Program-made: the position numbers and the translations under genes
NCBI RefSeq assembly: GCF_902652985.1
Contig: NC_047024.1
Coordinates: forward strand, 25,110,001 to 25,174,000
DNA from: Pecten maximus
Lineage: Eukaryota
Direction of reading: 5' to 3'
DNA length: 64,000 nt
The notes under the pieces: model-generated
What the model saw: only the letters and a program-made list of their open reading frames with translations
Told to the model about the DNA's origin: nothing
Database searches by the model: none
Shown here: piece by piece, positions 12,920 to 54,347 of the stretch
How positions within the stretch are numbered: position 1 is the first letter of the stretch
How the letters are laid out: each line of letters starts with the position of its first letter

Positions 12920-14473
12920 AAAGGAACAAACTGTTAAATCTGTTTTATCAGTCAAAACGTAGGTCATTTTCGAGGTGATATGATATGTTTGTCATTTGTT
13001 ATCGTTGAGGTCAATGTATTTATGATATTGTGGTCAAAGTTTAAAAAAAAACATGGCATGACTTGAAAATGTAAAAGAAAATTGTTAGTATTGATATTGT
13101 AATAAAAATACTGTGGTAAGTGTTGATATAATTACAGAACTATCGTCGTAAATGTTTTGTATTATTATAAAATGTCTTTTGTAAATTTTGATATTCCAAT
13201 AGAATGACGTGACAAGTGCTGTTATTGTTCTTAAAGACATTTATCAGTTTTATATTGTAATTGAATAAATGTTGTCTTTGTAAGCATTGTACAGGAAAGG
13301 AAGTCCATAACTTAACGATAAAAATGTGATGCATGTATTACAAATCAAATTTATCTTTTGTAATTATTTAGTATAAATGTTACATTGTTTAATATACCAA
13401 TGATACAGTTATATACTCAATAAATTACAGCTTATTATGTTTAAAACAGAAAAAGACATTTTCTTTTATCATTTGGATAGTTTGCTTCCATTCCCGACAC
13501 ATTTTAAAATATGCGTTTTACTAGACATTTTTCATTTTGAGGTAGACATAACGGAACGTGGAGATGGACACCGAGGCAAGTAACAGAAAGGCTATCTCAA
13601 AAGCTTTCAAGAAATACCGATAAAAACATCAATTGTCAAGTAGGTCCATATGTATGGGTACTTGATACAATACGGCGTCAATAATTTTTTTTAAATGACC
13701 CCTGTATTGATCTCCGTCTCAGCGCTCTTCACCAGGTTACCATCTGACGTCACGATCTGATTGAAAGAACTGCACAATTTCCCGGTATAAAACTTTTATT
13801 TGTAATAGTTGGTCCTTTCATAAGCATTTTTAAATGATTGGTTTATTCAAAAACTGTTCAACAAAAATATCAGTACTATAATGCGGTCGACTTATACGCG
13901 TAATAGAATCAAGCATTATTTCACATGGATGTGTTACGTCTACTGATGATTGTCAGAATACTACAATAGATAGACTTTATGTATACATGTGATAACAATA
14001 AATACATAAAATAGGATATGGCAAGGCTATAGTCTATGTAGCAATACTGTGGTATTTTGTCGCTTTCGTTTGTCCTCTTATGATTGAAGTAATATATAAG
14101 CATGCTACTTTTTGTTGCATTCTTATTTTAGCGCATACCTAATTTGAATAAACTAGCGAAATAATAAATTGGTGCATCCAAAATACTTTAAATTGAAATA
14201 AGCACAATCACAAATTATCCGGATGGTATCAGCGTGACACCCGTTAAAATAAGATTATCGCCAAAATATGTATGTTTACAGTAACCGATAGAAAACTAAA
14301 GGAATTCGCAATTATATATATACATAAGATATATACAATGTTTGTTATAACGTAAATTAAGTAATATCACAAAAAATACTATTAATAATATTGTAACCAA
14401 GACATAAGCGATGGTCAAATAAATTTGCCTGATGTGTCAGTCCTATCAATGCTGACATTTTAAAATCTTGAAT

Positions 14474-16220
14474 TTAGTCAACATACCAGTCCATAGGGTG
14501 ATTAGCTACATTGTCACCTCTATGTTGATGTTCACCGATCGTCCAACGTGTCTCCTTCATCTCGCCATTTGTCGTTAGAATCAAAATTCTCCAAAATGGA
14601 ATAAAGTTGGTGTCATTGTCGTCGAATTCCATCAAACGAAAAACCTGAGCTGCAACGTTACCATCGGTACTCACTTCAATGTTATCTGCGGTCACGATGA
14701 GTCTTTCTGTAGCCGATAGTTTAACGATACATCGCAATCTTGATCCGGCTCGAACAGCTTTTGCTAAATCAAGCTTCGATCCTTCAATAGCAGATCCACT
14801 TGTACCAGTACCAAGAACAAGACGCCATTGTCTTGTGTCAACAAACCACTGAGCAGCCGTGGTCGATTTATCATACACCGCCTTCAGGGAGGTACCACGA
14901 TGGTAGAGGTCTGTAAATATATCTCCATTTGTCGATATTCTGACCAGTTTAGATATGACATTGCCTACATTCTGTTGAGTTTCTGTCGATGATACAACCT
15001 GGCTCAGTAGCTGAGCAGTGACAATACCGTTGTTAATGGCAATGTTATCTGCATTCATTGCATAACTGTCAAATACAATTCGAACCCTCCTGCCTTGGTT
15101 TATCATGTCCAGTAGTTCTTGTTTGGAACCAAGAGTTTCATCGCCATTCTTTCCGTGGGAAAAGCTATGAGTCCAACAATAGTCTGCAAACCAATTATTG
15201 TCGCATGTATTTGCAAACGATTGTGTCAAGATTGTACCAGCTCCGATGGACGGACGAGAAACTTCTTTGGAACCAAATGATGATTTCAATACCACAAACC
15301 AGTAGAAAGGACTTGTATACCATTGGCTAAAATCGGAGAGTCCCAGCAATGACCCAACTCTCCAAACAGTTTGAGACGCTATTCCACAACTATCGTCAGT
15401 AAGTTCAATGCGATCAGCAGAATAAATATAATTTGATGTTCCACTTCGGTTTTCCAACATTCTAATGCCCGCGCCCTCCTCTGCAGCCTTGAAAAGGTCA
15501 TACAGGCTACCACAGGTCGAAGATCCGTTGGCATGGTTACAGTACACAGGGTTCACCTGCGAGTCTGTTTGCATCAATGGTCTGTATGATATTTGAATAT
15601 AATTGTAAGTACAATATAACATTGACCGATATCCAGTTCTCTAAACTTTGAATATAAATTGCTGACAGTCTTTCGCTATCTACCCTAATATATAATTTGA
15701 AATTATACGTACTGTTGTATATGTAATTATATACTTACAGATAAGTTTTTATATGAAAATACCGACCGCTCCTAAAATGCCATAACGGAACACATTAAAG
15801 CAGGAATTATCAGAAAATGTGAGATCAACAAATACAGATACCTTTGCCATAGGCATACGTACCTGGTAAACCAAATGGAATGCTTGCCTATTGGCAATGT
15901 AGATGACGGATTTTCTGATTTGCCAAGGTAGACCTTGCCAAAATGTACAAGCCCATGATCGCACACCTTGACAAATTTCCAGTACATATTTGACACAAAA
16001 GTGCCCCAGCTGCTCTTTGATAGAACAAAAAGAGAAGCTGCACAGACGACGCCATCTTTAATCATAATGTCGTCAACCTCTAAGTAAACATCAGGTGGCA
16101 GGTGTATCCTCATGTCATCGCCTCTTATCGCGGCAGACAGCACATCAGCTCTGCTACCGTTAAGAACACTGCCGTCTGCGTCCACCTCGAACAATATTTC
16201 CCATGTTTCACTGCAGTTGG
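14474..16220 (-). CDS. Duplicated 3' exon cassette (exons 3+4) of the secreted four-repeat protein, copy 2; no 5' exons of its own
   Basis: Exon 3 16220-15863 and exon 4 15581-14474; open frame, one G>V change versus copy 1, ends WYVD*. Confidence 0.75.
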
Positions 16221-18404
16221 CTTTAACAAAAATGTTTCGCAGCTGTACAACAATATAAGATGCATTGATAAGCATTAAACAACAAAATTACGTAACATTT
16301 TGTTTCCAATTTCGACCAAAATTGGACAGAATTAAGAATTGATGAATGCTGAAAATGCACTATAGATCCTTTTGTGGTCTTTTTAGCACGTTTAGTCAGA
16401 ATTTAATTTAAATAGCTTATAAGCTGAATTGATTCTGAAAATGTACACAGTGACCCTACCCCTTACTCATCAGGCCTCCTTGTTCATGGAAGTTTCTTGG
16501 TCATTATTTTAAAATATTTGCGACCAAAAGATATGAGACGTAAAAATAGGTCAATGTGACCTACCTTTTCAGTTTTTCAGTTTTTGACATTTCTAAATCC
16601 GATACCTACTTACCAAAAACTACATAAATAAGGGGACTATGGGTCTAATAATGACATCTAGTGATGTTTGACTTCCTTCAGTTTTGAAAAAAAACACCCA
16701 CACAAATACATAAATAAATAGGTGAATAAATAAAATAAAATGAAATAATAAAAAATACCAAATCTCAACGCAATCCAATGGGATGTCTAAGTTCAAGAGC
16801 CCTCGTCTGGAAAAACATATCATTCTCCTTCACCCCCCCCCCCCCCCCCCCCCCCCCCCTCCCCCACCCCCACCCGTTCCCAGGAAGAATCAAGGATTTC
16901 TTCTCTTCTCCTTGACTTCTTCTCAGGGGACAAAGCGGAGATCGCAACTGACCTGTAGCTGCTCCCATGTTCCCAATACCACAATGGATATCTCTTTGGC
17001 TTTTCCTTTCTTTCTTTTCTTCTATTTCTTCTCGGGTTTTGATTGTTATAATTTGTTGGAGTCTCACTGGTCGCTAGTCTTTATTCACGCATTGAACTGC
17101 TGTCAATTGGAAGCTATGAATGCCAGCTGGACAAATGCAAATTTAATGAAGCGCGCTAGCTGCAGTATAAATTCAAATATAAAACCACGAAACAAACATA
17201 CGTTTTGCCACTAAGCTAAAAGTTATCATTTTTGCAGTTGGTGATAGACTTCTCCGAAAGTCCGAACTCGTTAAAACCCTGGACAATGTAGACAATATTT
17301 TGGTGGATATTCTTCAGAAAAGGCGATGTGACCAGGAACATGCGATGGCACTGGATTTCTCCAGACAGCTGAAGGTAAATAGCCAGATATATCTCACGAG
17401 TAGTCTCATCTCATCATATATACACCTCTCAAGATGAGTCTTGCAATATGTCAATCTAAAATGAGGTATATATTATGTTCTATATATAGCTCGAGTTGGG
17501 TGTCTCGAGGTTATACTCTATAAACGAAGTAGGTTGGGGTTGTCGTTACTTGAATTAACCTGTTTGTCCGGACAATTCCCCCTTAAACTAAGTTTAAGGG
17601 GGAATTGTCCGGACAAACAGGTTGATTACTTGTGGCCGATTCCAATGCTATGTTATACATATCAACACTTTACCCTGGAATTGTGCATCTGGACACATTT
17701 CTGTCATTCGGGCCCTTTTTATTGAACTTATGACCAATCATTGACATTCCTTGTCCAAATATTTACAGAAAGTTTAAACATATATAGGTAAACTAGAATG
17801 ACCTGTCGCGTTGACCTTTTTGTGGAATATTCAAAGTGGGTAGTTCCATGATTGCACAGGTGTGTTAACAAAATATATTGATACGGAATACTACTGTGTC
17901 CAGCAGGGTGCTGTTTTGGACCATCCGTTTTTGTTACAATTTTATATTGACAACACAGGGATTGTATCATTTACTTTTGATGCATGGGTAACACATATTC
18001 AAGTAACTATGCGATCAATTGTTCACATGTTAACAGTTTTGTCGCTAAATCTAGACCAGTATAAATACAAATAATGCAGCTGATGATATATTAAAGGTTT
18101 GTTACATTATAAACAACTAACAGATATACATGCATATATACAAAGCACCCATTTCCCCTAAATGACTATAGACCCGTCTGTAACCAATATGCTAATCAAA
18201 GTTCAACACGACAGCTCATTCTGGTCGGACTATACCATGTAATGTTAATAGATTGTGTGTTAAATTGTTTTGATATTTTATTCGGACCTCGTTTTATTTG
18301 ATTAATCTTTGAACCTTTGTTAAAAAATAACTATTTTGTGGTCAATTCCTCCTAAACTACTGCATTTATTTCAACACAATATGATTAGTTTGATCAGTAT
18401 CATA

Positions 18405-20926
18405 CAGTTGGGAGCAAACTAAACTTGGTACCAAGTGCACTTCGTAGTGCACACGTAGTGAACAACGTAGTGCACTAGACTAAACATCGTAGTGCACTTG
18501 AGTTCACTACGATGTTAACTCCAGTGCACTACAATGTTAACTCCAGTGCACTACGATGTTAACTCCAGTGCACTACAATGTTAACCCAAGTGCACTATGA
18601 TGTGCACTTTAGTTCTTGGGTAAATGTTGTTATGAGCTATATGATTGTAGGACAAAACCACCCCGGACATTAGCCCCTCCCCCCCCCCCCCCCCCCCCCG
18701 GACATTAGCCCCTAGGACAAAAGCACCTCCGGACGAAAGCCCCCCCGGGGCTTTTGTCCGTACCTCCACATGATTTGATGTGTTGTATATTAACCTTCAG
18801 ACTCCGTACCTATAATTATGTATACATATTAAGTAATCTCCATTGAAAGCCATCAATTACTTGTTTGATATAAGATAAACAAACAAATTAATTTATTTTC
18901 CTGAAACCTTCACATACAATGTTATAATTATAGTTATATTCATGAAATATAAATTATTAATCAATTAAGGAGTACCTAATTAAATATATATAAGTAATCT
19001 CCATTGAAAGCCATGTTTGTTATAAAATGAGAAATCATTTTAGATTTCATCCATATACTAATTAGCAATACTGCATTTTGATTGTCATTTAAATAATGAA
19101 ACTGAAAATTCAGTGAAAACAAAAACAATTTTGTTTACTGCACTGTGCAGATACAAAATATGAAACAATTGACCAAGCACTGTTTACTATTGTATACTGT
19201 TCACAGAACTGTATTAAGTTGAGTCGCGTTACATAATTATGAAAACAGTTCAAACTGAGTAACAAGTTAATCTCCCTGTGGCTTCTCGGTTGTACCTTGT
19301 TGTGCCCATCTCCCCCACCAAAAAAGAAAGTCAAAGTGAATAATCCTACTTTAAATGTAAGTATTAATAAATGTGCATTCTTATTGATCAATATACGACA
19401 CCCAGCGTTTACCAGGTAAGACATTCTGAACTACGATACAGGTAAAGTATTTTCTTAGTCAGGTGAGACTACAGGTGTGAGAGTAGAACAATAGGGGATA
19501 ATTACAGGTAAGGTCTAACCAAGAGATCAATTTTCACACCTTGGTCTTGTATGGTCCAGGTAAATTCCATGTAAAAGTGGTCAGTCAAATGCAACATTTT
19601 GTAATCAATCATTTCAGCAAAATAATAATGATAAGTAATTAACCTCCATAGACATTTGAAAAAAAAAAATTTCATTTGTTTATAATCTTATAAATATAAT
19701 AATGTTATAAGTAATGAAAAAAGTAATCAAATTATAAACATATTTGTTTTACCTACTATTTTTAAGATCTAGTCGATGCAGACATTCGGTCTAGCATGAC
19801 TGTAACTATAATTTTTGACACTTGGATTTGACCCATACTCTAATACACACAGCTTGGTGACACTTATCAAAACGACAGGTAAACTCAAAAGTTTTTATTT
19901 GGATTTTAAAAACCTTTATAATATTATCTCGAAAGTCTTATTATAAAATTATATAAACTTGCAAACCAGTATTTTTATTTCTCAATAATAATCAATAATT
20001 TTAACGGGGAAACTAATTTATACACTTATTAGGTACATACGATAAAAATTAGATTGGGGACTGATTATATATAATTACATGAGTGTTTAGGGGAGGGGTA
20101 GCCATGCATGACTAGTACAGTACCTGTACAGGTAAACCCTTCATTAAGCTTAATGCCCTTTGGCCATGCCCAGAACAGCTGGACTCCTTGTGCCAGATTC
20201 CTCAGCTGTGTTTTCACACCTTTCAACAAAATAACAATCATAATCCCATTTTGTGTGATTTACCTGGTCTGGAAAGACTTATATACCTGACGGTATACAA
20301 ACTATAACATTTATGTTGCATGTACAATATATAACTCAATGAAGGCAGAATCAATATTGCTTGATGTTGATCGATTTAATTTTAATTCCAAAACTGGTAT
20401 TTTCCATGCTTCCTTAATTATAATTAATCTTAATTTAGTGTAAATGCATGGATGTAATGGGTGGAATTAATGGATGGAATTGATGTAATATGATACCTGT
20501 ATTTTGTCAGTTTTTGTGTATATTCTATTTACCAATACGTGACATGTATTATACTTATATACATGTAATAAACATATCTGAAATAAAAGTAAAATGTACA
20601 CACCATCATGAACACACACAATATACATGGACTAGTCCCTGTATATATATTTTTGAAATTTTGTTTTAATGAAACATTTATATGTTCAAGAGATTATGCA
20701 TTGTATATCAAATACTTTGTATGTATTGACTCGATTGCACTACGATGTGAACTCAAGTGCACTACGATGTTCACTCCAGTGCACTACAGTGTTAACTCTA
20801 GTGCACTACGATGTTAACTCCAGTGCACTACGATGTGAACTCAAGTGCACTACGATGTTAACTGGAGTTAACTTTTGTAGTGCACTGAAGTGCACTAGAC
20901 TACCAAGTTTAGTTTGCTCCCAACTG
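18405..20926. mobile_element. Non-autonomous TIR DNA transposon (Tc1/mariner-type TA target duplication), 2522 bp
   Basis: Perfect 26 bp TIRs CAGTTGGGAGCAAACTAAACTTGGTA / TACCAAGTTTAGTTTGCTCCCAACTG, flanked by TA...TA. The empty site CAGTATCATAGCATG is present in copies 1 and 2. 22 bp subterminal tandem repeats; no transposase ORF. Confidence 0.92.
18647..18763. mobile_element. Small nested TIR element/remnant made of GGACAAAAGCCCC-type repeats
   Basis: GTAGGACAAAACCACCCC ... GGGGCTTTTGTCCGTAC inverted ends with internal GGACATTAGCCCC repeats. Confidence 0.5.
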
Positions 20927-21279
20927 TAGCATGTAGTTGTGTATCTTATTTCCCCCAAAATATTTCATGTTTATGAATCTATCAAGATTACCCCATAATA
21001 TTTGTAACATATTTCCCTTCAAACCTGCTTATAAGTGAAATGAAATGTCACCAAATTTCGTTGCAATGATGACTAGAACGGAGGTTGAGCTGAACCTGGT
21101 TGTTTAAAATGCAGCCGTTCAGATAAACCTGAACATTAGTATGTGGAAGTTTGCACAACAATTTATCAACCACTTGTCATCTGTGCAGTTTAAAGTTTAG
21201 AAGTCATTAAAATGTTGCAGCGTACTTAGAAACTTATCTATTTATGAAAAAAATGTGTTACTTCAAATGAGATCAAACT

Positions 21280-23593
21280 ATGGAAATCCGTATATGGAGA
21301 AGAAGGATGTTTGACCCAAAAGGCCGAAAGCACTATTATCATAATACTGATTTATACCAACAGATAGCTGAGCTGAAGATGATTCTAGTAAGACAACAGA
21401 ACTACATCTAAAGACTTGAGTTACAGAATAAGGAGCTGGACGGAGTCCTTAGAGGGGTTCTCTTCGACCCTGACACAGAGCAGGTAGGTTAAAACATTGG
21501 GTGTAAGCAGGCATTTTCTGGCCTCTCAGTCTGTTATGCGTTAACTTTGCATAAATCCTTCTGTATGAAGCAGAAGACGCTAACTCTTTCTGAACTTCTG
21601 GTCTTATTCTTCCTGTACTATTTTAAGGTTCTCCGTGCAGATCTAGATTTTTTGTTCATGTTTTGCTTTTGCCTTCGTTTTTCCGATTTTGATTTAGAAT
21701 TATTATTTTGTTTTTATGTTGGTATTCTCTGTTATTTTTATTTTATTAATTAAGCAATTAGTCTATCGAACGAATATATGCTTTAATGTTAATTATTCGA
21801 CAATACTTTTATGATTTAATAAAACTATATTTAGATGTGCAATTCGCTTCTGTGTTATTCTTCAATCTTTTAACAAACAAGCGTGTTCTCAACTAGAAGG
21901 TTATATGCTTTACCAATGCCCAGGCTTTGCCACATCGCTCATTCATGGCCATGAAATAATATTTCATATATAACCCTATGAAATTGGTCGGTTTCAGTTC
22001 AGCGGCAATTACTTTGTGCGAAACGCTGTACAAAGCGGTGAGGGGTTCAGCACTATGGCAGATATATTACACTGTGACAACGCCAGTTACCTCCCCGGCA
22101 AGTCAACAGACCCAGACATGGTTGGCTCACAGACGTTTGACATCGGTAAGTGTTTAAGTGCATTTATTTGTGTAAAACATTGGTTAATGCTACTCTCTCG
22201 CTAATGTGAGGATTCAATCAGACTAATAACACAACAAATGTTTAATTTTTGTTGATACTAAAATATCGTAAACATTTACTTTTTTCAACATCATTGCCCA
22301 AATGGCTGTTATTGTGTTTGTTAAACGTCCTCACCACAGCCAGTCATATAAGGAAGAGGCATGGCTGGCTGTAACTTCGTGACTAACTGCTATAGATGCT
22401 TTCACACGAATATTTTGTTTTAATTAATTTAAAAAAAAAGAAAAGAAAAAAAAATGAAAATTGAAAGCTTTGGGTGTAAGCAGACATTTATCTGGCGTCT
22501 GTTGAGGCGTTCTTTGCATAAAATCCTTCTGTATTAAGTAGAAGCCGCAAACTCTTCCTGAACGCCTGGTCTTATTCCTGCACTATTTCAAGGATCTCCG
22601 TGCTGACCTAGATTTTGTTATATTTTGTTTTCAATTTCTACGTTCAAACACACTGCTTTTTAATAATAAACGTATCAATGTTATTCCTATTACTATCTTT
22701 GAAATACAGATCATCATGGTACACTACGTCATGAAGATCTGACTGGTCGGTCAGGGGTCATGTTCAGATGACCAACCATTCATAACTGGAAATATTTTGC
22801 CAGAATCTGCTTCCCTCGGAAAGCTCATGGCTTGTCCCCACTGAATAGATAATATCCGAGTGTCCCGAATGTCAACCAAACTAAAATGGCTGCGCCCATC
22901 GCCAGCCACTTCTCGTCCAAAACGATATGGTTTAGTGGACAAAGTATGCGTAGTTTTCTGGATTTTCCATTGTTGTAACGAACAATGCCCCGGAAGGAAA
23001 GGAAGAACTTCAAGAAGCAAAACAACAAATAGACCAGAGGCTAATTATTTTTTCAAAACTGTTTCGATAGCCTGTTTTATTTGCACACACTGCCGAACAG
23101 GCATATTAGAGACGCTTTTTGATTGGCTAAAATATACCTTTGTACGGTAAGCATTGAGGTCAACTGAACATGACCCTTACCGGCCAACGTCAGATCTTCA
23201 TAACGTTGTGTATAATAATGATCTGTATGTCAAGTAGCATGTTTTTATCGTTAATTAACCAAGGTTATATATTATTGTTCTGTCTTAGGGTCGAAAGCTC
23301 AACGTCTGTCTGCCGAGAGAGAGGTGATTTTTGATCCTAAAATGCTGAAGTACATGTGCCAAGAAACTCTAGCGGCCATTAATTCTGACATCGCCGAGAT
23401 AGGCTCTGGTGAAAAGGTCAAACATGGACATGACCCGGAAATAATTCAAGTACTTGATGGCGAGGCCAGGGATCTCAATAACTCGGGGGATGAGATAGCC
23501 AGCAAAGCGATAGTGACAAAAGTGGAACCAACAGAAACAGTAACGGATCCCGTCCTCGACATCAACGGGAACATTAATCTGTCATTGATCTAG
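21280..23593 (+). pseudogene. Orphan 3-exon coiled-coil gene, copy 3, nonsense allele
   Basis: Exons 21280-21483, 21998-22145 and 23289-23593; CAA>TAA at 21409-21411 (codon 44). Confidence 0.6.
22699..23233. mobile_element. Same MITE-like element, copy 3
   Basis: Duplicated with the unit; same TIRs, 9 bp longer internally. Confidence 0.8.
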
Positions 23594-25159
23594 AAAGGAA
23601 CAAACTGTTAAATCTGTTTTATCAGTCAAAACGTAGGTCATTTTCGAGGTGATATGATATGTTTGTCATTTGTTATCGTTGAGGTCAATGTATTTATGAT
23701 ATTGTGGTCAAAGTTTAAAAAAAAACATGGCATGACTTGAAAATGTAAAAGAAAATTGTTAGTATTGATATTGTAATAAAAATACTGTGGTAAGTGTTGA
23801 TATAATTACAGAACTATCGTCGTAAATGTTTTGTATTATTATAAAATGTCTTTTGTAAATTTTGATATTCCAATAGAATGACGTGACAAGTGCTGTTATT
23901 GTTCTTAAAGACATTTATCAGTTTTATATTGTAATTGAATAAATGTTGTCTTTGTAAGCATTTTACAGGAAAGGAAGTCCATAACTTAACGATAAAAATG
24001 TGATGCATGTATTACAAATCAAATTTATCTTTTGTAATTATTTAGTATAAATGTTACATTGTTTAATATACCAATGATACAGTTATATACTCAATAAATT
24101 ACAGCTTATTATGTTTAAAACAGAAAAAGACATTTTCTTTTATCATTTGGATAGTTTGCTTCCATTCCCGACACATTTTAAAATATGCGTTTTACTAGAC
24201 ATTTTTCATTTTGAGGTAGACATAACGGAACGTGGAGATGGACACCGAGGCAAGTAACAGAAAGGCTATCTCAAAAGCTTTCAAGAAATACCGATAAAAA
24301 CATCAATTGTCAAGTAGGTCCATATGTATGGGTACTTGATACAATACGGCGTCAATAATTTTTTTTAAATGACCACTGTATTGATCTCCGTCTCAGCGCT
24401 CTTCACCAGGTTACCATCTGAAGTCACGATCTGATTGAAAGAACTGCACAATTTCCCGGTATAAAACTTGTATTTGTAATAGTTGGTCCTTTCATAAGCA
24501 TTTTTAAATGATTGGTTTATTCAAAAACTGTTCACCAAAAATATCAGTACTATAATGCGGTCGACTTATACGCGTAATAGAATCAAGTATTATTTCACAT
24601 GGATGTGCTACGTCTACTGATGATTGTCAGAATACTACAATAGATAGACTTTATGTATACATGTGATAACAATAAATACATAAAATAGGATATGGCAAGG
24701 CTATAGTCTATGTAGCAATACTGTGGTATTTTGTCGCTTTCGTTTGTCCTCTTATGATTGAAGTAATATATAAGCATGCTACTTTTTGTTGCATTCTTAT
24801 TTTAGCGCATACCTAATTTGAATAAACTAGCGAAATAATAAATTGGTGCATCCAAAATACTTTAAATTGAAATAAGCACAATCACAAATTATCCGGATGA
24901 TATCAGCGTCACACCCGTTAAAATAAGATTATCGCCAAAATATGTATGTTTACAGTAACCGATAGAAAACTAAATGAATTCGCAATTATATATATACATA
25001 AGATATATACAATGTTTGTTATAACGTAAATTAAGTAATATCACAAAAAATACTATTAATAATATTGTAACCAAGACATAAGCGATGGTCAAATAAATTT
25101 GCCTGATGTGTCAGTCCTATCAATGCTGGCATTTTAAATTCTTGAATTTAGTCAACATA

Positions 25160-28100
25160 TCAGTCCATAGGGTGATTAGCTACATTGTCACCTCTATGTT
25201 GATGTTCACCGATCGTCCAACGTGTCTCCTTCATCTCGCTATTTGTCGTTAGAATCAAAATTCTCCAAAATGGAATAAAGTTGGTGTCATTGTCGTCGAA
25301 TTCCATCAAACGAAAAACCTGAGCTGCAACGTTACCATCGGTACTCACTTCGATGTTATCTGCGGTCACGATGAGTCTTTCTGTAGCCGATAGTTTAACG
25401 ATACATCGCAATCTTGATCCGGCTCGAACAGCTTTTGCTAAATCAAGCTTCGATCCTTCAATAGCAGATCCACTTGTACCAGTACCAAGAACTAGACGCC
25501 ATTGTCTTGTGTCAACAAACCACTGAGCAGCCGTGGTCGATTTATCATACCCCGCCTTCAGGGAGGTACCACGATGGTAGAGGTCTGTAAATATATCTCC
25601 ATTTGTCGATATTCTGACCAGTTTAGATATGACATTGCCTACATTCTGTTGAGTTTCTGTCGATGATACAACCTGGCTCAGTAGCTGAGCAGTGACAATA
25701 CCGTTGTTAATGGCAATGTTATCTGCATTCATTACATAACTGTCAAATACAATTCGAATCCTCCTGCCTTGGTTTAACATGTCCATTAGTTCTTGTTTGG
25801 AACCAAGAGTTTCATCGCCATTCTTTCCGTGGGAAAAGCTATGAGTCCAACAATAGTCTGCAAACCAATTATTGTCGCATGTATTTGCAAACGATTGTGT
25901 CAAGATTGTACCAGCTCCGATGGACGGACGAGAAACTTCTTTGGAACCAAATGATGATTTCAATACCACAAACCAGTAGAAAGGACTTGTATACCATTGG
26001 CTAAAATCGGAGAGTCCCAGCAATGACCCAACTCTCCAAACAGTTTGAGACGCTATTCCGCAACTATCATCAATAAGTTCAATGCGATCAGCAGAATAGA
26101 TATAATTTGATGTTCCACTTCGGTTTTCCAACATTCTAATGCCCGCGCCCTCCTCTGCAGCCTTGAAAAGGTCATACAGGCTACCACAGGTCGAAGATCC
26201 GTTGGCATGGTTACAGTACACAGGGTTCACCTGCGAGTCTGTTTGCATCAATCGTCTGTATGATATTTGAATATAATTGTAAGTACAATATAACATTGAC
26301 CGATATCCAGTTCTCTAAACTTTGAATATAAATTGCTGACAGTCTTTCGCTATCTACCCTAATATCTAATTTGAAATTATACGTACTGTTGTATATGTAA
26401 TTATATACTTACAGATAAGTTTTTATATGAAAATACCGACCGCTCCTAAAATGCCATAACGGAACACATTAAAGCAGGAATTATCAGAAAATGTGAGATC
26501 AACAAATATAAATACCTTTGCCATAGGCATACGTACCTGGTAAACCAAATGGAATGCTTGCCTATTGGCAATGTAGATGATGGATTTTCTGATTTGCCAA
26601 GGTAGACCTTGCCAAAATGTACAAGCCCATGATCGCACACCTTGACAAATTTCCAGTACATGTTTGACACAAAAGTGCCCCAGCTGCTCTTTGATAGAAC
26701 AAAAAGAGAAGCTGCACAGACGACGCCATCTTTAATCATAATGTCGTCAACCTCTAAGTAAACATCAGGTGGCAGGTGTATCCTCATGTCATCGCCTCTT
26801 ATCGCGGCAGACAGCACATCAGCTCTGCTACCGTTAAGGACACTGCCGTCTGCGTCCACCTCGAACAATATTTCCCATGTTTCACTGCAGTTGGCTTTAA
26901 CAAAAATGTTTCGCAGGTTTACAACAATATAAGATGCATTGATAAGCATTAAACAACAAAATTACGTAACATATTGTTTCCAATTTCGACCAAAATTGGA
27001 CAGAATTAAGAATTGATGAATGCTGAAAATGCACTATAGACCCTTTAGTGGTCTTTTAAGCACGTTTAGTCAGAATTTAATTTAAATAGCTTATAAGCTG
27101 AATTGATGCTGAAAATGTACACAGTGACCCCACCCCTTACTCATCAGGCCTCCATGTTCATGGAAGTTTCTTGGTCATTATTTTAAAATATTTGCGACCA
27201 AAAGATATGAGACGTAAAAATAGGTCAATGTGACCTACCTTTTCAGTTTTTCAGTTTTTGACATTTCTAAATCCGATACCTACTTACCAAAAACTACATA
27301 AATTAGGGGACTATGGGTCTAATAATGACATCTAGTGATGTTTGACTTCCTTCAGTTTTGAAAAAAAAAAACACCCACACAAATACGTAAATAAATAAGT
27401 GAATAAATAAAATGAAATGAAATAATAAAAAATACCAAATCTCAACGCAATCCAATGGGATGTCTAAGTTCAAGAGCCCTTGTCTGGAAAAATATCATTC
27501 TCCTTCACCCACTGAAGTGTCTTTAACAGACCAAGGGGCTGAGGCAATATGCCACCCTCAACCCAATCTGATACCTGTGTGGGCACCAAGAGTGCCATTA
27601 CTTTATCTGTATATAAAATATGTCGTTAATCCTAAGGTGATTCGCTACACAGAGAGTCTTTAATCTGTTGTTGATACAGCAGCACAGGTTACGGTAGTTA
27701 GCTTGGACTTATTCAACTCACTGGAGACTAACACGATTTGAAAATGTCGATAAAGATGATGATGATATTTGATATTTATGAGATTGATAGTGTTGCAGCA
27801 TGATGATGATGATAATGGTTATGATTGTCATGATTGGGATAATGATTTTTGATATTTATCAGATTGAGAGTGTTGCAGCATGATGATGATAATGATTATT
27901 ATTATTGTCATGATTGAGATAATGACATTTGATATTTATGAGATTGATAGTATTACAGTTTGATGATGATGATTATGATGATGATGGTGATGGTGATGAT
28001 GATGATGATGATGGTTGTCAATTGGGATAATGATATTTGATATTTATTAGATGGACGGTGTTGCAGCATGATGATGATGATGATGACGACGATTGGATAA

Positions 28101-31100
28101 TAATCATGATGACGATGATTAGGACAATTGCCCAAGATGATGCCTTGTTGGTGTGTGTAGGCGTGTGCGTGTGTGTTTGTGTGTGTTATTTATCTGTCTT
28201 TTGATGATATAAGAAAAGGCAAAACTAAAAAAGATAAAAAAAAAAAGGGGGTTTCAACATGTAGAAATTCTTCAAGTTTGCGTAAGCTGAATTAGTGGGT
28301 AAGCCAAAGAGTGACAAAGATGTACAGCCCTATAGGGACATGGATGGTCTCCTTGCTGCGGCCACCTTAAAGACTGATACCCTGTACTGATGACATGTTT
28401 GTTAAACTATGTAATCCTTCATTACTTGAAGTTGTGGATAAAGCTTACGGGAATCAAAGTGAATGTGAAAGAAATCCCACACCCCGACACCGGTATTGCT
28501 TTCATTTTGGATACAGATACCTCAAATGTGTCGTTTTGTACAAAGCTATCCCAGTTGCAAGGGGACAGACCTGTGTGGTTAGCTATGCGAATAAGGTGTT
28601 AACGCCCGTTCAAAGGAAGTATTGCACTACTCGCAAGGAGCTGCTTGCCATCTTCATATTTACACGCCACTTCAGACAGTAACTGCTTGGGAGAAGATTC
28701 ATTTTGCGCACGAACCACAAAAGTCTAATATAGATTCTTGATATCGGAATATCAAAGGTCAGTTAGCTTGTTGGTTCGAAGAACGTTCCTCGTACGATTA
28801 CCGTCATCAAAAATAGGTCTGGAAGGTGACCATCAAAATGCAAATCCATTGTCTCGCGTTCCGGGCAGGCTTGAAGAATGTCTCCATTACAGGAAGTCTG
28901 TTCCTTTGTAGTACATGTCATGAGGAGGCCCCCGAGAATAAGGCGAGACCTTTGAAGAGGAAATAGATCTGCTAAGGTACCTTCTGCAGGAAACATACTT
29001 TGACAGGAAGGTCTTTCGACGGGGGATCTTCTACAGAGGTAAGTCCTTCATAGCGGACATGACCAAAGGATGCCGGGCCATCTTGGTCAGGCGAAGACGC
29101 TTGAGCAGGTACAAAGGAGTGCTATTTGGTACGGTATGATATCAGATTACAAACGTTACATCGACATATGTGATATGTGAAGTATGCAACTTCCAGTCTA
29201 TGGAAAGAGATATACTGGGTTCATTATCAGTTACAGAGCAATGAAACAAATAATTATGTGTTGATTGTGGTTGTCTAGTTTACAGAGTGGGTCAATTTTA
29301 TGGTTATGTTTAAACTCATTAAGCGTTTACTGTTGATCTAAAGGATTTCTAATATCCTAAAATGAATGCTAGAAACATTTCTATTTTGACAATCTTCTTG
29401 GTTCGACTTGACGTTATCTCCATTAGATGTAAACAATTTATAATAAGTAATTATGGCTTATACATCGACTATAATAATGAGTCAGTTGGTTGGCCATTTT
29501 TCTGATGACAAAATATTTCCGTTTTTATATACAATTTGAGGATGGATGAGCTGTTTAAAGTAGGGAGAAGTGAATCTTGTGTTACTCGTCTACTCGGGCG
29601 TGACGGTGGCGAAACCTGTATTTTAAGGTATGTTATAATCTGAATAAACAAACAACATTAAAAAACAAACAAGAAGAAGAAAAAAAAGTCCTGGACGTTT
29701 TAAGGGATAAAAAGACCATGCTTACATTGCTTATTCTCTAGAGGAGACCCTTCACGGATATAGACGTCCTCTGTAGACGTTATATTGCTGGCTAGTTTAC
29801 ATTCACCACTTGTTCGGTTAAATGTTACAAGCATTTCGCCAACGGGCTGCAATAAAGCGAGGCACTGTATCGTACTCTCAACGGTCGTGACGTCACGGAT
29901 AATCGTTCTACTTCTCTCCTCTTGGTGACAGCTTCCGGAACCACCTGTCTGGTTGACTCTTCCTAAAAGCCATTGTCGCTCCATCTTGAGAGAAGCGCAT
30001 GTTCCTTAATATGAAAAAGGAAGTATTTTGTTTCAGTTAGTGATCAGGTATGGCCATAATTTAGCCTACTCAAATACAAAATAGTGTTTCTTAAATCAGA
30101 ACTACTAATAACCATCTAATCACGAAAGTCTGAGTCAAAATTTACAAAATATGTTTCGTGCGTCATTGCTGACGTTAGTGTTAAAAGATGAGTGGACGTT
30201 TATAAAGCATCATCAGCAGGCAAATCTTGAAAAGTATAGAAATGCTATTTGCATATGCTACAGCGTCGATAGCTTATACACTCCTTTCACAAAAATGAAT
30301 GCATAAAATGGCACCCATGATAAAGAAATATATCTTATATAACGCTAACAAATGAAGTATTTGAGCAAACTTTACATAAATATAGAGGCGGAGTACGAAA
30401 GATGGTTTACATTGAATTGAAATAAATAAATAAATAAATAAGACAGAAGCTCAATCTTTTGGAGGGCGGTAACAGCGACATTTTTTTTTTTAAATGTTTG
30501 CATTCTATAAAACTTTTCAAACGGGTCATAATTAATCTTTTGTGGCGGCATAGCATCTTTAGTTTGTTATGTTCAAAAGCCTTCGATAATTAATCAAAGA
30601 TTTGTGGCTATTTCATTTTTAGAAGATTATGAACACATCAAAATTCAACTTTTTACCTCACGTTTTTGATGGCATTCTGTATTATTTATACGGCCGTACT
30701 AAACCTGTTTTGGTACACCAAATTTCCAGCTAAATGTTCTCTTACCCTAGAAAAATGTATTCACATTTACCGATGTGAAGTTTCCTTATTTCACCCCAAG
30801 GTTGAAACAGGAGATTTCAAGTCCATAATTGTATGACGTCACCGCAACAATAAAATGACTTCAAAATAATACGTCAAACGGCATGTAAACAGTGTCGGAC
30901 ATTGATGTAACGTCAATATCAGATATGCCATTAGATATTTAGGACAAACATTGGAAGAGAAAAATAAACATTCACTGTCTTTTGTGAAGGAAAAGGTGAT
31001 CTCAGCATTTGGGTAAGGCAGTCAAGCTGCAGTATTCCTCTTGGGATTAAGATCCATTGTCTTACCCCTAAAGAGTGTACTAGTCTTTATCATTGCAATG

Positions 31101-31359
31101 AAAAGCAGGCTAACCAAGATTAAACTTAAAACCACCCTTATTTGTTAAAAACCAAACGTTTAGTTTGTCCAAATCAGGTTTTATTTTCAGAACATATCCC
31201 AAGAAAATATTATCTTATCCCTTGTGTCATTGATTGTCAGTTGGGCCTAATACTGTAATGAAGACGAAACTTACCTGAAAATAATATTATCAGAATAACA
31301 TCCATTCCTACTACACAAATGTTAAAATTGGGCATTATATCATTCCTTTGGTAGCTCAT
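25160..31359 (-). CDS. Secreted protein (~605 aa): signal peptide + degenerate PAN/apple-like module + four tandem ~120-aa uncharacterised domains
   Basis: Exons 31359-31275 (MSYQRNDIMPNFNICVVGMDVILIILFS, phase 1), 30004-29726 (phase 1-1), 26894-26537 (phase 1-2) and 26255-25160. All junctions are GT/AG and phase-compatible (1818 nt). The exon 2/exon 3 link is supported by their adjacency in the 36 kb paralog. TGG>TGA at 25162-25160 removes the final WYVD. Confidence 0.8.
27520..29185 (+). mobile_element. Decayed Ty3/Gypsy LTR-retrotransposon pol relic (protease, RNase H, integrase zinc finger) in intron 2 of the secreted gene
   Basis: VVDTAAQVTVVS protease motif (~27667); FILDTDTSN...VVSYANKVLTPVQRKYCTTRKELLAI...HFRQ*LLGRRFILRT (28500-28720); PGHLGQAKTLEQVQRSAIWYGM...YIDICDM (29070-29180). 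Frameshifts and stops throughout. Confidence 0.9.
27750..28145. repeat. (GAT)n microsatellite-derived repeat with recurring TTTGATATTTATGAGATTGATAGTGTTGCAGC core
   Basis: About four copies of the core separated by GAT runs, followed by a (GT)n tract. Confidence 0.85.
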
Positions 31360-32554
31360 CTTCACAGTAGGTTGTCGATGGTCGCCGGTACTGTCGAACG
31401 CACCTGTCATAGTTAAAGTACACATACCTTTATTCGCTGATTAGTCTATCGTTTGAGGCGCCAGATTGAAATCGATAACAGTGGTTATTTTAATTGAACT
31501 AGGAGGTAATAGCGAAACAGTTAATGGAAGTTAATATTGCTCTCCTTTTCGATTCAATTTGTTGGTTTTTAGGTTCACATAGACATCCAGAGGAAACAAT
31601 TTTTTGCTGGGATATAAGTAAACAAAAATTGCTATTTGATTTTTCATATGGTAGGCTTCAGCATTCTGAACTGGTTATCAGTTACTTTTCTGTACTGGAT
31701 CTAGAAATACAAGAATGGTCTCTAGTTTAAATGTCGTTAAAGTGCACTTTGATCTGAGACAAGGATATCAAAAACAGTCGAAGTCGATACGCATAATTCA
31801 TTACTCGTCGCCGTAAAATTGAAACCGATGAATTTCTCCGCTAGCTGTTTCAGTTCATTTAACATTTGTGGATCGCTTCACATGCAAACATGTAACTGCA
31901 CTTAGAGTTTCTACAATTTATGCCTTAATTTGCGTTGTATTAGCATAAGAATGTATTTAAGTTTTTACAGATATCGTATTTATTTCAGGATGTTTATATG
32001 TGTACAAGGTGGAACATAAACGTATACAAACAATTTTGGTCAAAATGAAGTCCTGAATCGACTTACACTGAACAGACTACCCCTGGAAAATGATATTGAG
32101 TTCTTTATATAATGATTTGATAAGTAAAAAATATATCTTTTAATCCATCATACAATATAGTTGCTATTAACTTGTCTGTTTTGTTATTGTAATCCTAAAA
32201 ACGAGATATTTAAACCATTCACCGAAAGGACTATCCCTTCATATGTCTTCTATACTGTATAGAAATAAAGACATTTTTAAATCATGCACTGAATATAATA
32301 TCACCAATTACAACCAAGTCTAAAGATCAGGAAACGTGAGTCAGTACAGAGTTCTTAAAATATCAAACATAAACTTGGAATTCTTAACAACTTACGTTAT
32401 TCATTCGAAATCGATCCCAATAGTATATCTTTTCTTTAATGATTCTCAACCGCTACACCGACAATCTCCAGATATTCTAAATCGCTAACATATTCTTTAA
32501 AAATTCAATCTCATTACACCACATATGCCACAGAGATTCAAAACCGTTACATCA

Positions 32555-33560
32555 CTTATTCTCTATAGATTCTAAACCATTTGCAGTTCATATTCTCTAG
32601 AGACTCTATACCATTGACCCCTGCTATTCTTTAGATATTCTAATCATTAACACTTCACATTCTCTAGAGATTCTAAACCATGCCCCCCTTCTATTCTATC
32701 GAGATTATTAATTATTAACCTCTCCTCTTCTACAGAGATTCTAAACCATTAACAGTTCATATTCTCTAGAGATTATATACCATTAACCCCTACTATTCTC
32801 TAGAGATACTAATCATTAACACTTCATATTTTCTACAATAAATATTCTTAACCATCCCCCCTTCTATTCAATAAAGATTATAAACCATTAACCCTCCTCT
32901 TCTATAGAGATTCTAAATAATTAACAATTCATATTCTGTAGAGGTTCTATACCATTCCCCCTTCTATTCTATCAAGATTATAAACCATTAACCCTCCTCT
33001 TCTATAGAGATTCTAAATAATTAACAATTCATATTCTGTAGAGTTTCTATACCATTCCCCCTTCTATTCTATCAAGATTATAAACCATTAACCCTCCTCT
33101 TCTATAGAGATTCTAAACCATTAACAGTTCACATTCTCTAGAGATTCTAAACCATTAACAGTTCATAATCTCTAGAGATTCTAAACCATTAACAATTCAT
33201 ATTCTGTAGAGATTCTATACCATTTCCAATTCTATTCTCTAGAGATTCTAAACCATTAACAGTTTATTTTCTCTAGAGATTCTAAACCATTAACAATTCA
33301 TATTCTGTAGAGATTCTATACCATTCCCAATTCTATTCTATAGAGATTATAAACCATTAACAGTGCATATTCTCTAGAGACTCTATACCATTAACTCCTA
33401 CTATTCTCTAGAGATTCTAATCATTAACACTTCATATTCTCTAGATATTCTAAATCATTCTCCCTTCTATTGTATCGAGATTATTAACCATTAACCCTCC
33501 TCTTCTATAAAGATTATAAACCATTTACAGTTCATATTCTCTAGAATTTCCAAACGACTG
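32555..33560. repeat. 33-34 bp minisatellite with a 100 bp higher-order trimer
   Basis: Unit ATTCTCTAGAGATTCTAAACCATTAACAGTTCAT; near-identical blocks start at 32881, 32981 and 33081. Confidence 0.9.
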
Positions 33561-33999
33561 TTGCATCACTTATTGTATAGAAATTTTAAACCATCGCATT
33601 AACAATCGACATATTTCTTACTCATTACATTGTTTATAAACCCACCATGTTGGCTAAGGTATCGATATGTCAAAACGACCTTAACACTATCACCGTAACT
33701 AAACCGAGACGTCTACGGTAAGTATTGTTATCACGGGATGTATACGTAGATATGCGATGAAAATTAAAAAAAAAAACAAAAAAAACAAAACAAAAAAAAA
33801 CAAAAACAATAAAACAAAAAAACATATCAGTATATCTCGGTACACCGTGTCCATTGATATGTAATTTCAAGGTATTTCTTTTTGTATTGATAATCGGGCT
33901 ATCCCCGATGCTTTATATCCGTAACTATTGATCTAATGGTGTTAATAATCTAATACTTCTTTGATTACAGAACTGGAACAAACAATGCGTTTCGGTAGA

Positions 34000-34560: not shown

Positions 34561-35059
34561 TGAATATTTAATTACTCTAATATACATTTTCTGCGAATAT
34601 GTACGTATATGGTTTCGGGATTGATTGTTATAAATATATTATGAAATCCGCATAAACAGTTTAAACAAATACCGCATAAAACTTTCCACAGCCAATTTGG
34701 TGTCGACTTTTGATATTGTAATTTCTCTTCCTCTGGTATGTTTCTCATTGATCAATGAAATATTCACCGGAACAATATATAAGATCATGAACATTTAACC
34801 GCCAATCTAAATAATTGTATAAATGTTCTTGTTTGCTGCATGATTACAATTCGATCTTTTTCCATCGAATGGATTTATTTTAATTTCTTTTCATTTGCCG
34901 CTTATATTGTTTTATAAATGTTGAAACATTTTTTCATTGACTAAAATAGTTCTATTTTCAAAAACTAAAATATAAATTGCATGTATCATCACTGTCATCC
35001 TAATAAAAAAAGGATTACTTCTAGAGTCAACTGAACGATACTGACCTCGGTTCACTAAT

Positions 35060-35900
35060 ACGCTGACTGGAAGCTGGACACATACCTGAAGAACCTGACA
35101 TGAGGCTGCGGTCGACCTATTCGTCACTGGTACCTGTTGTCTTCCAGAAGAGTTCTCCAAGGCAGTCTAAAGCGCTACTGGGCAAGTTTCACGCCTATGG
35201 AAGAAGTTCATGCAGACATACATAGTTCATTTCCAGTAACATATCGAGAAAACAAGTATGTGTTGATGGTGATGAACCAGTTTGCGAGGTCGGTTGAGTG
35301 TTTCTCTTGCCGGATCAGATCCCGTAAACCGGGACGTTGACACTGGTCGATGGTGTTATCTCACCTTTTAGGAATATTTCTAAACTGATTAAAAGAAGAA
35401 CATAGATTGTAAGATCACGAGGAAGGTTTGCGATCTTTTAGTGATAGCCAAGACAAGGACAACACCATGTTATCCATCCAAGAATGGGCAGATTGAGAGG
35501 TACAATCGGACCAGTGTTCACGTTATACGATGTCACGCGGAGAATAGCAAAAGCGTACATTGGATGTACTTCCTCAGCAGCTGACTGCTGCCATGAAGGC
35601 GAGACACCTTCTCCAGACAGGTTTCACACCTTATCGGTTTATGCTTGGTAAGGAGTTCGTCAAGCCTCTTGATTTGATGGTTCGGATATCGACAATTACC
35701 ACTCCCAGCTCAATACCAGACGCTTTCGTTGAACAACGTGAAAACGGTAACAGAAACGCTCACACACTAGCCCAAAGCTGCTTGAAATCTACACAGGCCA
35801 AACAAAAAACGGGACTTGATGCATTCGATAGGAATCATTTTATGTCGGGGACATCGTGCTGAAGAAAGATTCCTCGACAAAAAAGCACGAAACGTCGTGT
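35060..35900 (+). mobile_element. Decayed Ty3/Gypsy integrase relic
   Basis: PMEEVHADI...ENKYVLMVMNQF, KTRTTPCYPSKNGQIERYNRT and QTGFTPYRFMLGKE match the rve core; disrupted frame. Confidence 0.9.
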
Positions 35901-36044
35901 CCCTTTGTAAGGACCTACGTTATCTCGAAAGCTCTGTCACCCACATTCTCGATCGATAGTTGATGTCGATAAAATATCTACAATCGAAATGCTTATTCAG
36001 AAGATATGTGTCCCGCGAATATAAACACTTTGCATTATCATTAC

Positions 36045-36774
36045 CTGTAAACGAAATGAAATGCATGCCTTTTCGTGGTGGGATAGACTGTTTTTCTGCT
36101 TCACAAAGCAGATCTAACTTGCTTAAATGTACAAGTCCATGATCGTACACTTTGACAAATTCCAAGTACATGCTTGGCGCAAAAGTGTCCTAGCTGCTCT
36201 TTGAAAGAACGAATATAAAAGACATACAAACGACGTCATTTTTTATAACGATCTCGTCAGTCACTTAGTAAACATCAGGTGGCCGGTGTATCCTCGTGTT
36301 GTCATCCATTAACGCAGCAGACAGCATGTCTGCTCTAGTACCATTTAGGACACTACCGCCTGCGTTCCCCTCGAACAGCTTTTTACGTATCATCACAGCG
36401 TCCTAGAAAAAAATGCAAAATATCTCGCTGTAGGAAATAAGTCTATACGTTTCCTTGTTTGGTTTTTTCACCTTAAAGCAGAAAGCTTCCTAATTAAATC
36501 AAAAGGATCAAGTTTCCGTTATTAGAAGTCGTTTTTGAGGCTGTGTCCTTAAAAACAAAACATGAAACATCCGCTTGCTCGGTTAAATGTTATAAACATT
36601 CCGCCAACGGACTGCACAGAGGCCATACACTGTATCGTGCTCTCGACGGTCGTCGTGAGGTGACGATATGAATTAGCTTCCGATCCTTCTCTTCTCGGCT
36701 ACAGGTTCCGGAACTGGTCTAGCGGACTCTTCCCAAATGCCAATGTCGCTCCATCTTGAGAGAAGTGCATGGTT
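36045..36774 (-). pseudogene. Older paralog of the secreted four-repeat gene (exon 2 and exon 3 remnants)
   Basis: 36774-~36570 matches exon 2 (CTSLKMERHWHLGRVR*...TTVESTIQCMA). 36402-36045 matches exon 3 (LNGTRADMLSAAL...PPDVY*...LSKSS*...FVKVYDHGLVH) with several in-frame stops and a frameshift. Confidence 0.9.
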
Positions 36775-37369
36775 CTGAATAAGGAAAATTTTTGGTCAAG
36801 TACACTTCTCTGAGTGATAAGGTAAGGACATGAATAAAACTTCTCTCAAATACAAATAAATGTTTATCAGATTTGTGCTATACTAAGTTAATCGTTTACA
36901 GGAGTTATTTCCCTTCGATTGTAGATTATTGAAAGATAAAAAGGGTGCTATATTTGGATGCTGTGACAAGGTGTATTAAAAGGTTTCAAAAGATTGTGAG
37001 TCCATAATGTAAATTTGTCAGTGTTGTGTGATTTAAACAATGCAATGTAATATAATTGAGAATGTCAATTACCGCTGTCAGAAATTAGTCACCCCGGCGA
37101 TTGTCGCGATAAGCAATGTCATGTTGCGACAATTCATTTGGATTTTGGGTCGAGTTGACCTATTCATATGTAACGTGCTCGAGAGCCCATACGATATGCT
37201 GTATAACAGCAAAGGTTAGCTAATTTTCTGATGTTATTACATGATGTTTGTATCTAGAATATTGGTCATTGGAACTAAGTGATCTTTGCATCAGAATTCA
37301 TAATTTATCGAGTAGTATAGCTTATACTCTAATCGGGTCAAGCACCATTAGAATATTGTAAGTCGTAAC

Positions 37370-53690: not shown

Positions 53691-54298
53691 ATGACCTCGT
53701 GGCCCCTACAGACGTTGCTGCTACTCTTGTCAATAGTTGCTAGGGCTTCGGCCTCAGGAATGATGAAGGATTTGGAACTATTGAACGATACTTTATTTGA
53801 GGATTATCGACCCGAATTCCGACCTGCGTTTTACCTTAACGAAACTGTAGAGGTCAAATTAGAGTACTATCTCTACTCTGTCATCGACTTCAATGTCGTC
53901 TCGGAGGTCGTCTCATTGGCCGGGTCGATGAGGATAATGTGAGTGATACAAATATATTAATATAATCTTAGACTATGTCGTCTGCTTCCAGTTAGTATTA
54001 ATAGAAAAAAATATTAGAACCTTCTCATACTTTATCACTTGATGATATACGTTGAATGTGCAATTATAGTTAGATCAGATTGCCCCCCCCCCCCCCCCCA
54101 ACCCTTAATACCACCCTAAAATATACAGACTACTTCGGTTTCACAGTCGATGCATCGTCAGTTATCACGACCGCTTTTGATCCATCTTCTCATCTTTAAA
54201 TCATTGTCATACGACAAAAGAATAACATGCATTAATATTTGAGAGTTCTAAACTTTAAACTTTGAACGTTGGACTTAAATTGAAAGTGAATCTCTCTC

Positions 54299-54347
<49 letters not shown>

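Follow-up and report, generated by a model that had tools for sequence, protein, structure and literature searches.

What kind of protein is made of four copies of a repeat that carries no family name, and how intact is the gene that encodes it? Both questions arise in a window of 64,000 nt from the scallop Pecten maximus (assembly GCF_902652985.1, contig NC_047024.1, positions 25,110,001 to 25,174,000 of the forward strand; coordinates below are those of the window), where a gene copy occupies 25160-31359 on the minus strand. A first-pass annotation had described its product as a secreted protein with four similar domains. Our analysis points to a family of secreted or surface proteins, so far uncharacterised, with a compact C-terminal module of four predicted VirK-fold domains. 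At roughly even confidence, we would read this module as a multivalent binder that acts outside the cell without enzymatic activity and whose ligands are most likely glycans.

Four exons can be predicted for this copy (31275-31359, 29726-30004, 26537-26894 and 25148-26255), all with canonical AG/GT ends, and splicing them in frame yields 605 amino acids (aa) before the first stop. The model draws on sequence and homology, and exon 1 especially is a prediction. The predicted protein runs from a putative signal peptide through a degenerate PAN-like domain to four repeats of ~117 aa. Exon 1 (31275-31359) would supply an ATG, the hydrophobic putative signal peptide and a phase-1 GT donor in frame with exon 2. 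Its hydrophobic stretch (mean Kyte-Doolittle (KD) value 2.76 over 11 residues, about residues 15-27) is the sole one in the protein, and the scallop paralogues P0013 and P0014 have one at the same position. Both the signal peptide and the several N-glycosylation sequons claimed earlier can be placed in this protein, the former as a putative element and the latter as eight N-x-S/T sites. Exon 3 (26537-26894) carries repeat R1, from aa 128 onward, with two conserved Cys. The first part of exon 4 (25850-26255) encodes a linker and R2 (aa 250-376), followed in the same exon by R3 (25502-25849, aa 377-492) and R4 (25163-25501, aa 493-605). The last segment, 25148-25162, opens with a premature TGA (25160-25162) in place of a conserved terminal Trp and continues with the YVD and stop codon used by other copies.

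The four units quoted in the first-pass annotation do lie on the minus strand, opening with WEILFEV at 26877, VNPVYCN at 26230, WTHSFSH at 25849 and WRLVLGT at 25501, and their self-similarity was borne out. By single-sequence Smith-Waterman alignment, the scores of five of the six repeat pairs were reached by 0-2 of 1000 shuffles, and the R1-R2 pair alone was not significant (39 of 1000 shuffles). Profile-profile alignment with HHalign joined all six pairs significantly, at probabilities of 95.8-98.9% (E 8e-9 to 3e-17) over 110-112 columns. A consensus derived from 400 repeats (W1, G11, G16, L21, G28, R32, A56-Q57, W77, T84-x-G86, G96, W112) is close to the rough one proposed before. The repeat had also been called unassignable to any named family. 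At the level of sequence families this stands: Pfam at cut-off returned no family for the window exons, for 15 scallop proteins or for the repeat region of 83 family members, and an NCBIfam scan of the same 83 members returned none for the repeat. PDB sequence searches with P0001 (the protein of the two intact copies described below), with an 83-sequence profile and with a single-repeat profile gave nothing better than E 0.14, and a viral fold library gave 0 matches at E <= 0.001. A Pfam SopA match (E 0.02-0.03, 15 bits against a cut-off of 27) was rejected as noise. The predicted fold, in contrast, is a known one, that of VirK (PDB entry 5XTA).

AlphaFold was run on P0001, which is 98% identical to the 25160-31359 copy over exons 3-4, with 15 sequences, and gave a model with a predicted local distance difference test (pLDDT) score of 84.7 and a predicted template modelling (pTM) score of 0.88. 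The same hairpin-helix-strands pattern occurs four times in this model, where each domain has a beta-hairpin and a single helix together with some eight more strands; the recurring pattern and the pTM score speak for one compact unit. When the model was compared with 48,161 chains using VIA, R4 matched VirK 5XTA (Z 10.7, root-mean-square deviation (rmsd) 1.9, 100/120 residues, 16% identity), the only chain at Z>=5; the next row had a Z of 4.1. Foldseek recovered 5XTA with a probability of 1.00 and a TMt of 0.56, at rank 43 and E 0.016; its top matches with the whole model (laminin, PCNA and neuraminidase) were rejected, with template modelling (TM) scores of about 0.1 and rmsd over 20. Additionally, the top row for an Atlas model of the homologue P0003 was a VirK (PF06903) cluster, aligned over 113 residues at TM 0.64 by target, and an Atlas feature search with P0003 gave no usable match. 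These models argue for a VirK-like fold of the repeat. 5XTA is the Legionella VirK-family protein lpg1832 (NttG), and its entry contains four chains, a parallel to the packing of four repeats that is suggestive and no more.

Sequence evidence for a relationship with PF06903 is fainter. The window exons had no VirK (PF06903) match in Pfam. Two of the 83 family members matched PF06903 below its gathering cut-off (best 15.6 bits, E 0.018, against 23.7 bits), and a further sub-threshold match of 12.7 bits was found among 30 members scanned; all three fall on PF06903 positions 4-45, with a faint shared helix-Gly-strand motif. The profile of 400 repeats aligned with a shallow 14-sequence VirK alignment at a score of 17.9, above 100 of 100 column shuffles (maximum 16.8), at an HHalign probability of 9% over 30 columns. 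Per-position repeat profiles reached probabilities of 0.2-4.5% against VirK, and sequence searches of the PDB with repeat profiles did not recover 5XTA. The similarity is marginal, and we therefore call the repeat VirK-like and not a member of PF06903; common ancestry is likely but not shown. PF06903, whose members include Agrobacterium pTi VirK, Xanthomonas and Dickeya VirK and Legionella lpg1832/NttG, is distinct from the unrelated VirK-YbjX family of Shigella and Salmonella. The two groups share the predicted fold and a similar domain size, and VirK, an exported protein, likewise lacks an assigned function. VirK is a single domain of about 145 aa (homologues found here had 144-173 aa in a search confined to 79-252 aa), whereas the scallop protein has four tandem domains behind another domain. 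Furthermore, the VirK literature describes the family from Proteobacteria (PMC554113, PMC6617341), including a listing of PF06903 in plant-associated Proteobacteria (PMC554113), while the four-repeat module occurs in scallops and Myxococcota. VirK is reported to be type-II-secreted, with its function given as unknown and no mutant phenotype in Dickeya (PMC5700972, PMC9007343), and lpg1832 is given as secreted, with its role undefined (PMC6617341).

How widespread is the module? A first homologue search gave 15 matches, the 14 besides the P. maximus gene LOC117336610 being scallop proteins from four species, and a second search with a deep alignment returned only 11 scallop proteins, all seen before. 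A profile of the 15 sequences retrieved 370 representatives at E<=0.001 (50% clustering), of which 150 were listed; repeats were counted on 159 proteins, and for most of these matches (P0016-P0159) the label "animal-like" is an inferred one. Four repeat matches were counted in 57 proteins, fewer in 101 (many resembling fragments) and five in one, where two matches are halves of a single repeat. Repeat number reaches a ceiling of four, and in 50 of the 51 proteins with four full repeats the chain ends within 10 aa of the last one. Among these 51 proteins, 19 have a strongly hydrophobic N-terminus and none has an internal transmembrane-like stretch. Pfam scans of 64 longer members revealed fusions of the module to six C-type lectin domains (P0019), to Sushi together with a sub-threshold PAN match (P0090), to Sushi (P0111) and to LamG3/ConA-like domains (P0109, P0124 and P0133); one scanned protein had a weak PHP_C match, and 56 had no Pfam match. 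In P0085 (1294 aa), Cys-rich DUF4215 repeats of myxobacterial type precede the four-repeat module.

On the bacterial side of the family, the members look like lipoproteins with low-complexity linkers. In a quick unrooted tree of 48 four-repeat proteins, computed with long-branch warnings, eight such members form a clade with a Shimodaira-Hasegawa-like approximate likelihood ratio test (SH-aLRT) value of 100; the tree gives no direction of transfer. A lipobox-like pattern was present in 4 of 10 bacterial-clade proteins. A GTDB scan confirmed two of ten candidate stretches, one in a Polyangiaceae and one in a Myxococcales metagenome-assembled genome (MAG), a lower bound given that two R2 patterns were used. 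The Myxococcales homologue is 99.5% identical to P0133. By our own reading of the open reading frames (ORFs), the Polyangiaceae homologue (L001) follows resistance-nodulation-division (RND)-transporter-like and TolC-like genes, with a TonB-receptor-like gene nearby (these neighbours lie at 79-4630 and 11060-13354), and the Myxococcales homologue (L002) lies near an IS3-like fragment (6290-6667). The module, found in scallops and in lipoprotein-like proteins of Myxococcota, is an uncharacterised, probably extracellular one common to animals and bacteria. Bacterial R1, R2, R3 and R4 scored best on the animal-like profile of the same position in 7, 10, 7 and 4 of 10 cases, and the reverse comparison gave 1, 23, 38 and 12 of 41. 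Positional correspondence between the groups is only partial, holding for R2 and R3, in part for R4 and not for R1; this pattern favours, but does not prove, a single origin of the four-repeat order.

Ahead of the repeats, exon 2 (29726-30004, about aa 30-121) is conserved in scallop homologues and offers a lead to a degenerate PAN/apple-like domain. The region of homologue P0010 that matches exon 2 (aa 50-135) finds PAN clusters in Atlas at lead level, in the feature search (0.89) as well as in the structure search (TM 0.52-0.56). Exon 2 resembles PAN/apple domains (PF00024 clan) in its strand-helix-strand-strand core and its S-x-x-x-C and F-N-x-x-x-x-x-C-x-L-like spacing, and another family member has a sub-threshold PAN_1 match. 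It differs from them in that the CxxxC helix usual for such domains lacks its second Cys here. The Pfam PAN hidden Markov model matched neither exon 2 nor any of 15 scallop proteins, and a separate fold prediction of exon 2 was of low confidence (pLDDT 49) and was not used.

Residue conservation was examined in 44 four-repeat proteins (35 animal-like and 9 bacterial) after 7 near-duplicate rows had been dropped. What the four repeats have in common is mainly Gly, Leu and Trp; at no D/E/H/C/S/K position is conservation 70% or more in every repeat. An enzyme whose active site is located within a single repeat or formed between repeats, which we regard as very unlikely, could draw on several well-kept polar residues (R2 D115 and R4 R32 in 94%, R4 D45/N46 in 74% of the 35 animal-like proteins); these are not kept equally in the bacterial clade and form no invariant catalytic-type set. 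Furthermore, a single Gly is the only invariant residue across 83 aligned proteins, and no enzyme fold exceeded Z 4.1. Kept in both groups are Y76, R92 and W93 of R2 (71-77% of the 35 animal-like and 89-100% of the 9 bacterial proteins), and W77 and R32 of R4 are kept in the animal-like set. A Cys before R1 and a Cys before R3 co-occur in 24 of the 35 animal-like proteins, suggesting a disulfide that may tie the module together.

We favour an extracellular binder because the family combines export signals with the lack of a membrane segment, recognition-type fusion partners and the lack of a shared catalytic set. In this proposal the protein would be exported, glycosylated and disulfide-bonded, and its four VirK-fold domains would pack into one pseudo-symmetric unit. 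A repeating extracellular ligand would then be bound multivalently and without catalysis by aromatic and basic patches (Y-W, R-W and, in bacteria, W-H), whose conservation is highest in R2 and R4. This ligand would most likely be a glycan carried by microbes, mucus or matrix, and the PAN-like domain would have an accessory role. The class of ligand is the weakest step, and a glycan is a putative choice.

Several observations weigh against this proposal. It builds on a predicted fold and on sequence features, so that ligand, expression and localisation are all putative. The superposition on VirK covers R4 of a predicted model, with R1-R3 following by repeat homology, and both the symmetry of the unit and the surface exposure of the patches are presumed. 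VirK itself provides no function to transfer to the scallop protein, and a shared fold shows none. The protein in the window has lost the tryptophan of the R-W pair in R2 and has R-P instead. No recognisable lectin, Sushi or LamG partner is present in 58 of the 64 scanned members, and a strongly hydrophobic N-terminus is absent in 32 of 51 four-repeat proteins, behind which incomplete gene models likely stand.

Tandem-repeat invertebrate lectins (tachylectins, C-type, F-type, galectins and R-type) are secreted, multigene and labile in bivalves. The scallop protein resembles them in its repeated small beta-rich domains and putative secretion, while its repeat matches none of them in sequence or fold: Pfam and PDB searches with the repeat hit no lectin family, and lectin matches came only from fused domains. 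The earlier description as an extracellular binding, lectin-like or matrix protein accordingly holds for its extracellular part, in view of the export-type features and fusion partners, while "lectin-like" and "matrix" stay conjectural. A structural matrix protein, forming a scaffold in shell, periostracum, byssus or mucus by protein-protein assembly, would fit the secreted-type features, the sequons, the PAN-like domain and the several paralogues per scallop genome; the globular, non-biased composition and the presence of the module in myxobacteria make it distinctly improbable, and the scallop gene IDs were not found in literature searched by ID. We give a similarly low standing to a carrier or scavenger in which a lipid, a metal or a small hydrophobic ligand would sit in each VirK-fold domain or in a cavity at the centre of the four. 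Its beta-rich domain with conserved Trp and other aromatics and the lipoprotein-like bacterial members would suit such a role, as would the position of the L001 gene, beside genes for an RND-type transporter and a TolC-like protein and not far from one resembling TonB-dependent receptors (labels from our sequence reading). However, L002 shares none of those genes in the 6 kb downstream (upstream, the contig ends), and the lectin, Sushi and LamG fusions fit surface recognition better.

With a tandem four-copy form in scallops and in lipoprotein-like proteins of myxobacteria, the predicted VirK fold reaches into animals. The family that has this form carries no name and counts at least 370 representatives when clustered at 50%; its lectin-, Sushi- and LamG-fused members are clues to what the VirK fold binds. 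A bolder and doubtful proposal is that the module is a single-chain VirK oligomer that arose once, was horizontally transferred between myxobacteria and marine invertebrates, and expanded in animals as secreted glycan-recognition proteins of immunity or mucus. If true, this would represent an undescribed lectin fold, and its conserved binding patch would for the first time make the function of the VirK proteins that plant pathogens secrete approachable. A literature search by seven scallop gene IDs found no paper, within a scope that excluded subscription papers, supplements and InterPro/CATH/TED entries, and "VirK-like" literature concerned bacterial topics, with no animal protein by title or abstract start.

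How intact, then, is the gene? Among the R4 repeats compared, 94% of the 35 animal-like ones and all 9 from the bacterial clade have the Trp that the TGA at 25160-25162 replaces; this Trp maps to the final high-confidence strand of the AlphaFold model. The copy at 25160-31359 (copy 3) is probably impaired, because this nonsense codon would remove the last core strand of R4. Downstream on the same strand lie two duplicates: copy 2 (14474-16220), with exons 3 (15863-16220) and 4 (14474-15581) intact to WYVD and the stop, and copy 1 (6268-8014), with intact exons 3 (7657-8014) and 4 (6268-7375). Neither has exon 1 or 2; the duplicated unit is 8.2 kb long, and its breakpoint falls within intron 2, some 600 nt ahead of exon 3. 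Copies 1 and 2 differ at 2 of 1467 coding nt (99.4-99.9% identical overall), and copy 3 differs from them at 15 and 17 of 1467 (7-8 synonymous and 8-9 non-synonymous codons, including the stop). An older relic lies at 36046-36781 (-), comprising an exon-2-like piece (36570-36781) with a stop and a frameshift and an exon-3-like piece (36046-36378; 57% aa identity) with two stops, and neither exon 1 nor exon 4 was detected there.

Exon 4 of copy 1 is 100% identical to NCBI LOC117336610. The NCBI model of the intact copy (P0001) has a different short first exon and no signal peptide. The ATG at 16968 and 8752 (-), which matches the first residues of LOC117336610, sits upstream of these two copies in a segment of 1.4 kb, and the LOC117336610 model therefore lacks signal peptide and PAN-like domain; its short first exon may be an annotation patch. 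Could the locus, instead of three dying genes, be a single gene whose exons 1-2 are joined to an alternative 3′ cassette, namely the intact exons 3-4 of copy 2 or of copy 1? Both of these copies retain the acceptor of exon 3 together with about 600 nt of the preceding intron 2. Both are also situated downstream on the same strand, in frame and intact, and only 2 of 1467 nt separate them. The different first exon of the NCBI model and a polyadenylation-like signal about 630 nt past each copy speak against such splicing, and we consider it unlikely.

A DNA-transposon-like insertion of 2.5 kb (18403-20928), with 28-nt perfect terminal inverted repeats and a TA target duplication, is found only in the unit of copy 3; the empty TA sites are at 2031 and 10224. 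It looks non-autonomous, has subterminal palindromic minisatellites, and its ends are presumably Tc1/mariner-like.

The extra copies might also be assembly artefacts, either uncollapsed haplotypes or an over-expanded tandem unit, with the nonsense codon as an allele or an error; we hold this possible but on the improbable side. Coding divergence among copies is 0.14-1.2%, about 1% between copy 3 and the others, whose introns and flanks differ from those of copy 3 by 0.7-2.3%. These values compare with a reported heterozygosity of 1.71% for the P. maximus genome (PMC7191990), and being within it the divergence is indistinguishable from haplotype or assembly duplication; the near-identity of copies 1 and 2 points the same way. 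On the other hand, three copies exceed two haplotypes, and the same clean new junction inside intron 2 is present in both copy 1 and copy 2. The transposon in copy 3 alone fits paralogy, but also a polymorphic insertion. The first-pass claim of a recent triplication with an older pseudogene is thus upheld as to duplication, decay and relic, and needs amending to one 5′-complete copy with a late nonsense codon and two near-identical copies without exons 1-2, whose divergence also fits assembly duplication. The PAN-like domain, the TGA (WYVD had merely been bracketed) and the partial state of the two downstream duplicates are additions to that annotation. As read from the sequence, the locus fits birth-and-death of gene copies, and duplication and decay on this local scale are nothing unusual in a bivalve genome.

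Each duplicated unit also has a likely terminal exon of a convergent gene on the plus strand (about 23290-23590, 12614-12916 and 4406-4708), with an AG acceptor, about 100 codons and a stop, and no Pfam match. Decayed long terminal repeat (LTR)-retrotransposon-like fragments, with putative RNase H- and integrase-like sequences, lie at 28371-29200 in intron 2 and at 35050-35950, where exon 4 of the relic would lie. Elsewhere in the window are an inverted repeat of about 560 bp (42520-43079 against 44344-44864, 89% identity, in the region 42461-44864) and tandem satellite arrays at 32429-33594, 50303-51397, 54491-55714 and 60662-64000, the last of which fills the window end and has spurious Cys/Thr-rich ORFs. 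Finally, two tandem genes for Cys-loop ligand-gated ion channels (nicotinic-receptor-like; Pfam Neur_chan_LBD and Neur_chan_memb), with very long coding exons, lie at 45228-48348 and 53664-58024 on the plus strand.

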